A stretch of DNA of 64,000 nt, from positions 43,958,001 to 44,022,000 of the forward strand of contig OX597824.1 of assembly GCA_951406725.2 (NCBI GenBank). The letters run 5' to 3'. The stretch comes from Octopus vulgaris. Lineage: Eukaryota. Below, piece by piece: positions 31,170 through 33,908 of the stretch. The translations under genes were made by a program, and so were the position numbers. The first letter of the stretch is position 1. Every line of letters starts with the position of its first letter. The notes beneath the pieces are model-generated. The model saw only the letters and a program-made list of their open reading frames with translations. It ran no database searches and was not told the origin of the DNA.

Positions 31170-33790
31170 GTATCCTTTAACTGCTTCTATACTTTGGTGG
31201 ATCATTTGACTGAATAATGATAACCTAATCAATTGTCTGACAATGGTTAAATTTGTGTTAGAATTTAAGAAAAAAAATGTTAACTACAATGAATTATGCA
31301 GTGTGAGAGAAAAGAAAACAGTATTTGACCATGACTAGTGTTATTTTCATTATCTTGGCAGTTACAAAAAACAAACTCTGCATGTGTTTCAGTCTTATTA
31401 TGACCTCATCAGAGAGACATAAAACTGATATTTCTGTTATTTATTCAAATGTAGAACATTTAGCATCAATCTTTTCTCTACCAAAATATACTGAGGGATC
31501 TTTAACTGGTTCCATTAACTTATCTTTGGGAAACGGATCTTAAATATGTATCAGTGTATAATTATGTGTATTAAATCTACTATATTACTACTATGTGTGT
31601 AAACTCTATTATATTACAGCTCTGTATATTGATCTTACAATATTGCTATGTATGCTGAGGCTACTATATCACTACTACATTTCTAGTGTACATTTCTAGT
31701 GTCCCAACTATAATTACTGCTATGTGTACTGAGCCTCCTACATTACTACTATGTATTGACCCTACTATATTAATGTTGTATGTATAATCTTTTTATATTA
31801 TTGCAATGTATTGATCCTCCTGTGCTATTCTAACATAACTGATATTTTACTATTCCTTTAATTAGATTAAAGGCAAAGTTTACTTTTATGGAACTCTAAA
31901 ATTGAAACCTTGATGAATATATATAATCCATTTCTCTATCATCTATGCCAATGGAGACTGGATGGGAATTAGAATATTAAAATCATTTTTTAAAAAGTGT
32001 TTTTCTCATTAACATCCAGTTTCCTACCATAGAATGGCTAAGATAGTTTTGAAAATGTAAAATTTACCTAGGGATTGTTGATTTGAAGTGCATGTGTGCA
32101 TGCGTGCATGCATGCTTGTGTGTAGTGAATGTGATAGAAGCAATGGTGACTGATGGTGGTGAAAATAAAAGCTTTTGCGATTTAGTTTTCAAACAGACAG
32201 ATAGACAATAAGACTGACTGACAAACATGCTAGCAGAAATTCACACATATATACGTATGTGTGTGTTTGAAATCAAAGCTAGGCAAATTTAGGCAAGTAG
32301 AATCACACACTTTGCTTCCAGGTACAACAAGTGAATGAATGTGTGAAAGGTAGTTGTTTGACTTGCTAAAACAAATAACACACTCTTAAAGAAGGGATGA
32401 CACTTGGCATAATGTACACTTGAATATACTTGTGTGAAAATAGAAAGAATAGTCACAGTTTAAAATACTTTGTCCATAGATCTACTGGCCAGAACTAAAT
32501 AACAATATATTGTTTTAATAGTTTAACATGTATTTTAGTATTTAATCAACATGGATTGAATGACTCTGCCGCCTCTGACATATCTATTCCATATGTACCA
32601 AAAGTTACATTGTGTATCCAAAAGTGAAATGAAATTGATGTTTATTTTACAGCCTTAGGTAATGTACTTTTACTAAGGTATCCATGTCAAGGTTTGACCT
32701 TCTGATCATCACTTCAGCAGCTTAACATGTTTTAGCTTAGTTGTAACGGGAGGACTTCTAACCTCTTCCCTTTCACACTAGTTATCACCATGGTGTGGCA
32801 TTTAAGGTATTCAATTAAATCCTTAGCTGGAACTATTTTCTTTGTTTTTTTTTAAGCCCTTGCATTAGTATTCCAACGTCCACATTTGTAAAAGACCTCA
32901 GGTTTCACATTTATTATTATTAGTATTAAGATGGAAGGCAGTGAGTTGGCTGAATTATTAGTGTGTCAGACAAAATACTTAGCAGCATTTCTCCTGATTT
33001 TTTTAATGTTCCGAGTTCAAACACTACGAAAGGCCTCTTTGTCTCTCATCCTTTAAGTAAAAATACTAATCAGGTACTTGGGTAGATATAATCAACTATC
33101 ATTCCTCCCACTAAAAACTGCTGGCCTTATGCTATAATTTGAAAATATCAGTATTAAAATGTAATATTTAGTAGTACATTACACCTACCTTTAATCTGAC
33201 CTCAATACCTCAACTATACATGTTAAAACATCAAAAGGATTGGAATGAGTTCTTCAGTACTCTGGTGTTAATCAAATAAATATCAGTAATATATTGGAAT
33301 CAATTTGAATTACTATTTCTCCTTTTCTTGTGTTGATGTAAAGAATAGTTTTGGCTTCACAACTATGGTTTTGGATTTAATCTCACTACTCTACACTTTG
33401 AAGTGTTTAAATATCTTCTTCCATAGCTGTAAGTCAACTAAAATCTTGTGAGTGTAATTCGTTTGGTAGAAATTTTATGGATGCCTGACAGGGGGACTGT
33501 ACCAGTTCTTAGATAGACAGTAGTTTTAACACATTGCCTTGATTAATACTAGCACCTGGTTATTGGATACTTTTAACAGAATCAGTTCTGTTGTCAGCAT
33601 TCAGCATTCTCTGGACTGAGAATAACTTCTCTGCTTACAATCCCAAAGGACCTGGAAAAGATCATGGGTATAGTCCTTCTAACTAACCTATGAAAAAAAA
33701 TGACTAAAGTTTTCTATTCATATCATAAATTGTTATTCACATTGCTCTGTTAAACCATCCTATTATTCTGCTCTCCTTAACTTATCTGTG
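31170..33790 (+). other. U12-type intron (MOCS3 intron 5, phase 2) with apparent GT-TG termini
   Basis: 5' GTATCCTTT; branch point TCCTTAAC at 33774-33781; in-frame junction at ...ctgTG|T TAT GAC; no AG between the branch point and the conserved YD codons. Confidence 0.82.
31550..31860. repeat. Degenerate ~28-30 bp minisatellite
   Basis: Variants of tgtgtattgatcctactatattactacta repeat about ten times. Confidence 0.65.
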
Positions 33791-33908
33791 TTATGACATT
33801 GTGATAGATGCCTCTGACAATGTTGCCACACGATACCTTGTTAATGATGCATGTGTCATCTCTGGCAAGCCTCTGGTTTCTGGTAGTGCTCTACGATTTG
33901 AAGGACAG
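33791..33908 (+). CDS. MOCS3: MOCS3 exon 6
   Basis: [39 protein letters not shown]|gtgagt; the 5' boundary is inferred from reading frame. Confidence 0.92.

Follow-up and report, generated by a model that had tools for sequence, protein, structure and literature searches.

A likely U12-type intron with a TG acceptor in the MOCS3/UBA4 gene of Octopus vulgaris

Known GT-TG introns and the octopus gene

The minor intron class is defined by its 5' splice site and branch site, and either A of the branch motif can act as the branch point (review passages in PMC3584512). According to the same passages, the main determinant of the U12 acceptor is how far it lies from the branch site, with an optimum of 11-13 nt, and minor introns with non-canonical ends are spliced, often less efficiently. 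These statements agree with the premise of an earlier note on this DNA, that U12 acceptors are chosen by branch distance and tolerate odd terminal dinucleotides. In the tables that bear on it, the GT-TG ending is represented by one mouse case in a set of 66 U12 introns with non-canonical ends (Sheth 2006, PMC1557818 Table 2), by 1/770 in a human Minor Intron Database table (PMC13602164) and, among conserved minor introns, by 29 animal (0.039%) and 15 plant (0.064%) cases (Larue and Roy 2023, PMC10639083 Table S1). It is also named among the G-type introns in a passage of PMC8280824. A passage of Sheth (PMC1557818) describes frequent changes of a single base that convert canonical into non-canonical ends or the reverse, and adds that automated annotation mis-maps such introns. 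Our literature search brought up no paper that treats a minor intron of MOCS3 or a GT-TG intron of octopus, and the main texts of PMC11347168 and PMC7367187 contain none of the words 'GT-TG', 'octopus' or 'MOCS3'. The online tables of Larue and Roy may hold the intron described here, their species list including O. sinensis and O. bimaculoides (PMC10639083). 

The intron in question, the fifth of MOCS3/UBA4 in octopus and called intron 5 here, resembles the known GT-TG U12-type introns in having U12 donor and branch motifs and TG as its last two bases, and differs from them in gene and phylum. It also shares one trait with the U2 TG acceptors of the GNAS type, an AG located 28 nt or less from the TG (Szafranski 2007, passages of PMC2374985).

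The window analyzed is a 64,000-nt stretch of O. vulgaris DNA, and all positions are given on its forward strand (+) unless stated otherwise. The gene lying across the intron encodes the housekeeping enzyme MOCS3/UBA4 in 12 coding exons between positions 22446 and 57672 (+). Exons 1 to 4 (22446-22541, 26792-26933, 28247-28339 and 29499-29619) are followed by exon 5 (31095-31169), which ends with ATT CAA CA in phase 2 at codon 176, and by exon 6 (33791-33908), which begins with T TAT GAC ATT and codes for part of the ThiF core. The model is completed by exons 7 (36600-36708), 8 (40877-40939), 9 (45113-45273), 10 (49233-49280), 11 (55650-55749) and 12 (57452-57672). When intron 5 is cut at 31170-33790 this model gives a 1347-nt frame of 448 amino acids, which shows no differences from O. 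sinensis XP_029642587.1, 15 from O. bimaculoides XP_014770747.1 and 80 from Argonauta GAB1601309.1. Searches with the protein of exon 6 gave MOCS3/UBA4 matches, with Argonauta and Octopus bimaculoides proteins at the top identity of 93%. Pfam analysis of an identical protein (P0227) recognized the ThiF/MoeB domain PF00899 (E 4e-80) and a C-terminal rhodanese domain, PF00581 (E 7e-11), and the best solved relative of the product is Uba4 (6yub_A, E 3e-78), to which the region of the intron 5 junction aligns without gaps. Homology, domains and this structure thus bear out the housekeeping function that the earlier note had assigned to the gene. The spacing from LN to DxxDN across the junction region is identical in 156/173 homologs, all longer than 280 amino acids; the other 17 comprise 13 without the anchor, three mis-anchored (spacing 17) and one with an insertion (spacing 38).

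Several repeats were observed in the non-coding parts of the gene. Intron 7 holds an LTR-like element (37676-40657) with two direct repeats of about 155 nt, 2.83 kb apart and 91% alike. On the minus strand of the element, positions 38434-38838 carry an uninterrupted C2 domain similar to those of SMURF1/2 (Pfam C2; SMURF1 3pyc_A, E 9e-45), which looks like a putative fragment of a host E3-ligase mRNA captured by a retroelement. Directly before the element, at 36742-37627, a repeat of about 215 nt occurs in four diverged tandem copies (61-85% alike). Within a repeat of intron 3, about 50 nt at 29085-29135 (-) resemble what we take to be the 5' end of 18S rRNA; Rfam at the gathering threshold gave nothing there in a scan of positions 1-33600.

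Splice signals of intron 5

U12-type introns carry the donor consensus RTATCCTT and the branch consensus TCCTTRAY, and both motifs were used for scoring. Intron 5 (31170-33790, +, 2621 nt, phase 2) begins with the 5' splice site GTATCCTT at 31170-31177 (+), without mismatches to the donor consensus, and contains the branch motif TCCTTAAC at 33774-33781 (+), also without mismatches, in which A33779 and A33780 are the candidate branch points. The donor lies outside the interval 33770..33800 to which the earlier note was confined. The eight non-U12 introns of the gene, by comparison, show three to five donor mismatches. The branch motif is followed by TTATCTGTG at 33782-33790 and then by T TAT GAC ATT GTG, so that only 9 nt separate it from the exon. 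A scan of 33740-33812 for AG and AC dinucleotides found AC at 33754, 33780 (within the branch motif) and 33796 and AG at 33806; the earlier note was therefore right that neither AG nor AC occurs from the end of the branch motif to the Tyr codon. The last two bases of the intron are TG (33789-33790, +). The cut after 33790 falls 11 nt from the first and 10 nt from the second branch A, at the low edge of the 11-13 nt optimum given in the passages of PMC3584512, and produces the junction peptide IIQHYDIV; a frame-preserving TG cut about 10 nt from the branch, with this peptide, was what the note had predicted.

The branch motif TCCTTAAC is not enriched by itself: the window has three copies, and 2.1 would be expected. 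Under a first-order Markov model, the probability of finding both motifs at the two ends of one given intron, each without a mismatch and the branch 8-mer confined to a zone of 12 positions, is about 4e-7; the consensus motifs behind this figure are in line with the review passages in PMC3584512. On these grounds, and with the spliced contigs described below, it is very probable that intron 5 belongs to the U12 type and is spliced out by the minor spliceosome, its acceptor predicted to be set by the distance from the branch site and not by AG. Its dependence on the minor spliceosome is what we infer from the motifs. U11 and U12 would recognise the donor and TCCTTAAC jointly, one of A33779 and A33780 would serve as the lariat branch point, and exon ligation would use the G placed 10-11 nt downstream of the branch As. 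The final G of GT-AG would thus be retained, with just the penultimate A replaced by U, and the AG located 27 nt downstream of the branch would be too far for use. In the 63.6 kb of the window scanned with Rfam (1-33600 and 34000-64000) there was no match, hence no minor snRNA.

The same gene contains two other U12-type introns, both with GT-AG ends, and all ten introns besides intron 5 are GT-AG. The boundaries of these two were set by protein identity and not by reads. Intron 8 (40940-45112, +; branch GCCTTAAC) has two in-frame AGs near its end (45090-45112), at 6 and 12 nt from the second branch A; the proteins fit the distal one, so that the AG at 6 nt is bypassed. Intron 11 (55750-57451, +; branch TCCTTAAC) uses an AG at an unusually short spacing, only 7 nt from the second branch A, so the distance ruler is not rigid. 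Intron 5 shares with both the donor GTATCCTT, the CCTTAAC branch motif and the short distance from branch to acceptor, and differs from such canonical introns in that its penultimate base is T, not A. Measured from the second branch A, TG at 10 nt was chosen in intron 5 over AG at 27 nt. These three introns in one gene provide an internal comparison of distance versus AG for the minor spliceosome.

An alternative reading is that the U2 spliceosome handles intron 5 as a TG-AG tandem, in which AG 33806-33807 would license the first step and the TG 17 nt upstream would be taken at the second. The spacing of 17 nt would suit it, since human U2 TG acceptors are known up to 28 nt from an AG (passages of PMC2374985). 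The tail is pyrimidine-rich as well (a share of 0.81 at intron positions -20 to -5, the branch motif included), similar to the U2 introns of the gene, whereas U12-type introns as a class have no distinct polypyrimidine tract, and two U2-type donors of the gene match GTRAGT no better than that of intron 5 (three mismatches each). However, under this reading it would be a coincidence, at the joint chance given above, that the donor and the branch motif match the U12 consensus without a mismatch and that the spacing is of the U12 kind. In the passages of PMC2374985 the TG sites appear only as alternatives to a neighbouring AG that is itself used, and the introns had been filtered against U12 motifs, whereas in intron 5 the TG is the sole acceptor among the joints listed, the AG is out of frame, no joint to 33808 is among those joints, and U12 signals are present. 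We therefore regard the U2 tandem as very unlikely and keep the minor-spliceosome reading.

Transcript contigs, the genomic base and other acceptors

Four of the 24 runs listed (X12, X13, X17 and X20) were examined over the region 29450-36750. All runs consist of assembled contigs, and their RNA nature is a guess only (8/24 were guessed to be RNA, and none is recorded as such). In three of the four runs (X12, X13 and X17) contigs join 31169 to 33791, skipping 2621 nt with GT..TG ends and no ambiguous letters; the search for spliced sequence that the earlier note had proposed was thus successful at the predicted site. The depth of this joint is 38.7 in X12, 40.4 in X13 and 8.09 in X17, which belong to studies P8, P9 and P4, respectively, and all come from organism A. 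The GT-AG joint between exons 6 and 7 has a depth equal to that of the GT..TG joint in X12, X13 and X17, and so does the joint between exons 4 and 5, also GT-AG, in X12 and X13. With spliced contigs in three studies and exact donor and branch motifs, the GT-TG minor intron postulated in the earlier note is well supported, its U12 dependence being deduced from the motifs. In X20, from organism F, the GT..TG joint is absent, and a piece covering 33748-33904 is unspliced with three differences at places not given. Pieces that keep intron 5 occur in X12 (depth 2), X13 (depth 3), X17 (depth 3.8) and X20 (with intron 6 removed); contig depth is no gauge of intron retention, and these pieces were not counted as slow splicing.

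The joined contigs could in principle be a processed DNA copy or an assembly or reverse-transcription artefact instead of mRNA, as the runs are RNA by guess only. Yet they measure 1731 and 1883 nt, the size of an mRNA, carry two further exact intron joints and show no differences across the listed exon pieces. No letters are shared across the 31169/33791 joint, and the lack of microhomology leaves nothing for template switching to act on. The junction, moreover, yields a conserved protein. We consider the probability of an artefact practically negligible, and take the contigs as evidence that the TG acceptor is used.

Concerning the genomic base, intron 5 could instead be an ordinary GT-AG minor intron, in which T33789 stems from a mistake in the assembly or from a private allele and the transcripts derive from AG alleles. 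The read-level support for T comes from one unspliced contig of X12 (33662-33812), with a depth of 2, which ends 23 letters beyond 33789, below our 31-letter bridging rule, and is weak alone. This contig nevertheless has T at 33789 and no differences over 151 nt, and it comes from a run that also holds the 31169 to 33791 joint, so that X12 shows both the TG allele, thinly, and its splicing. The earlier note had asked that base 33789 be verified in raw reads; the verification was made here on contigs, and the base was T. In addition, 32/32 sampled words of 33640-33960 occur both in sample S1 and in sample S2, which represent two studies; about three of the words would be expected to lie over 33789 if sampling were even (an estimate), and both samples were marked as ones from which the window may derive. 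In O. vulgaris, the model CAI9730102.1 skips to AG 33885-33886, as expected where no AG is available at the acceptor, an argument that is not independent if the window belongs to the same assembly. We give an error or private allele hardly any credence. That the genomic TG is neither an error nor a rare allele is supported, but the support is thin.

The other possible acceptors were examined for their effect on the frame. Cuts after 33781, 33784, 33787, 33790, 33793, 33796 and 33799 keep the frame, and 33790 is the only one that gives 448 amino acids. AC 33780-33781 would keep the frame with three additional residues but lies inside the branch motif, and the frame is broken by TG 33787-33788, TG 33794-33795 and AC 33796-33797. 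The nearest AG (33806-33807, +), 17 nt 3' of the TG, is out of frame, with a stop after 178 amino acids. The first in-frame AG (33885-33886, +) gives 416 amino acids, with a loss of 32 residues from the ThiF core. There were no joints to 33808 or 33887 among the 15 joints listed; six more joints exist, and contigs drop rare forms. A-to-I editing, which is common in octopus, is unable to convert TG to AG.

The use of AG 33885-33886 is seen in a public gene model. CAI9730102.1 (P0123) equals our 448-residue model at residues 1-176 and 209-398 and reads IIQH-ALRF, the product expected from that AG, with 32 residues and the DASDN block missing; its ThiF domain is split into two pieces by Pfam, and its C-terminus differs after residue 398. 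Another model, O. bimaculoides A0A0L8HNT4 (P0125), passes directly from exon 2 to DASDN and is wrong around exon 6. The expectation that annotation pipelines would mis-model the intron holds for CAI9730102.1 but not for the RefSeq models of O. sinensis and O. bimaculoides or for the Argonauta model, all of which have IIQHYDIV.

The intron position in other animals and significance

We looked for the same intron in other animals among 51 short or odd homologs, from which 17 non-window proteins were chosen by eye because the sequence before YD or FD was unlike exon 5; they were taken as intron read-throughs. In a phase-2 read-through the residue preceding Tyr reveals the last two bases of the intron (in the window this residue is C, from TG). 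Residues compatible with AG, R or S, precede Tyr in 15/17 read-throughs versus 14/168 spliced full-length homologs. In P0070, from the coral Oculina patagonica, the residue is T, so that the intron must end in AC; in XP_061174643.1 (P0095) from the oyster Saccostrea echinata, a protein with an 8-residue insertion, it is I, and the ending must be AT. Each of these is a single gene model. The His found at the junction in the proteins of three octopods does not reveal the intron end. The read-through residues indicate that an intron at the position of intron 5 is widespread in animals, and they hint that it ends in AG, AC or AT. Among the 12 read-throughs with nine upstream residues, the U12 branch motif is encodable in six, versus 39/168 spliced controls, a weak excess; in four of the six it lies at the 9-nt spacing seen in the window. 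A U12 nature of the orthologous introns is only hinted at by these comparisons.

We may tentatively suppose, with somewhat more doubt than confidence, that intron 5 of MOCS3 is an ancient minor intron whose ending has drifted while its branch distance stayed nearly fixed, with AG in most animals, AC in Oculina, AT in Saccostrea echinata and TG in octopus. If true, this would be a natural allelic series in which distance alone sets the acceptor of the minor spliceosome at intron 5 in an essential gene. As to the octopus ending itself, the most likely origin is one substitution that turned the AG of an old GT-AG minor intron into TG, which is most likely tolerated and not selected for.

Intron 5 is a well-supported new example of a known, very rare intron type, with better transcript support than calls made from motifs only. 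The rules of splicing are unchanged by it, as non-canonical ends of minor introns were already established. At the practical level, the public model CAI9730102.1 is corrected at the intron 5 junction. A wrong acceptor at intron 5 leads to a broken frame or to partial loss of the enzyme core. In a housekeeping gene of an invertebrate, intron 5 offers a natural, transcript-supported instance of a minor-intron ending that is among the rarest.
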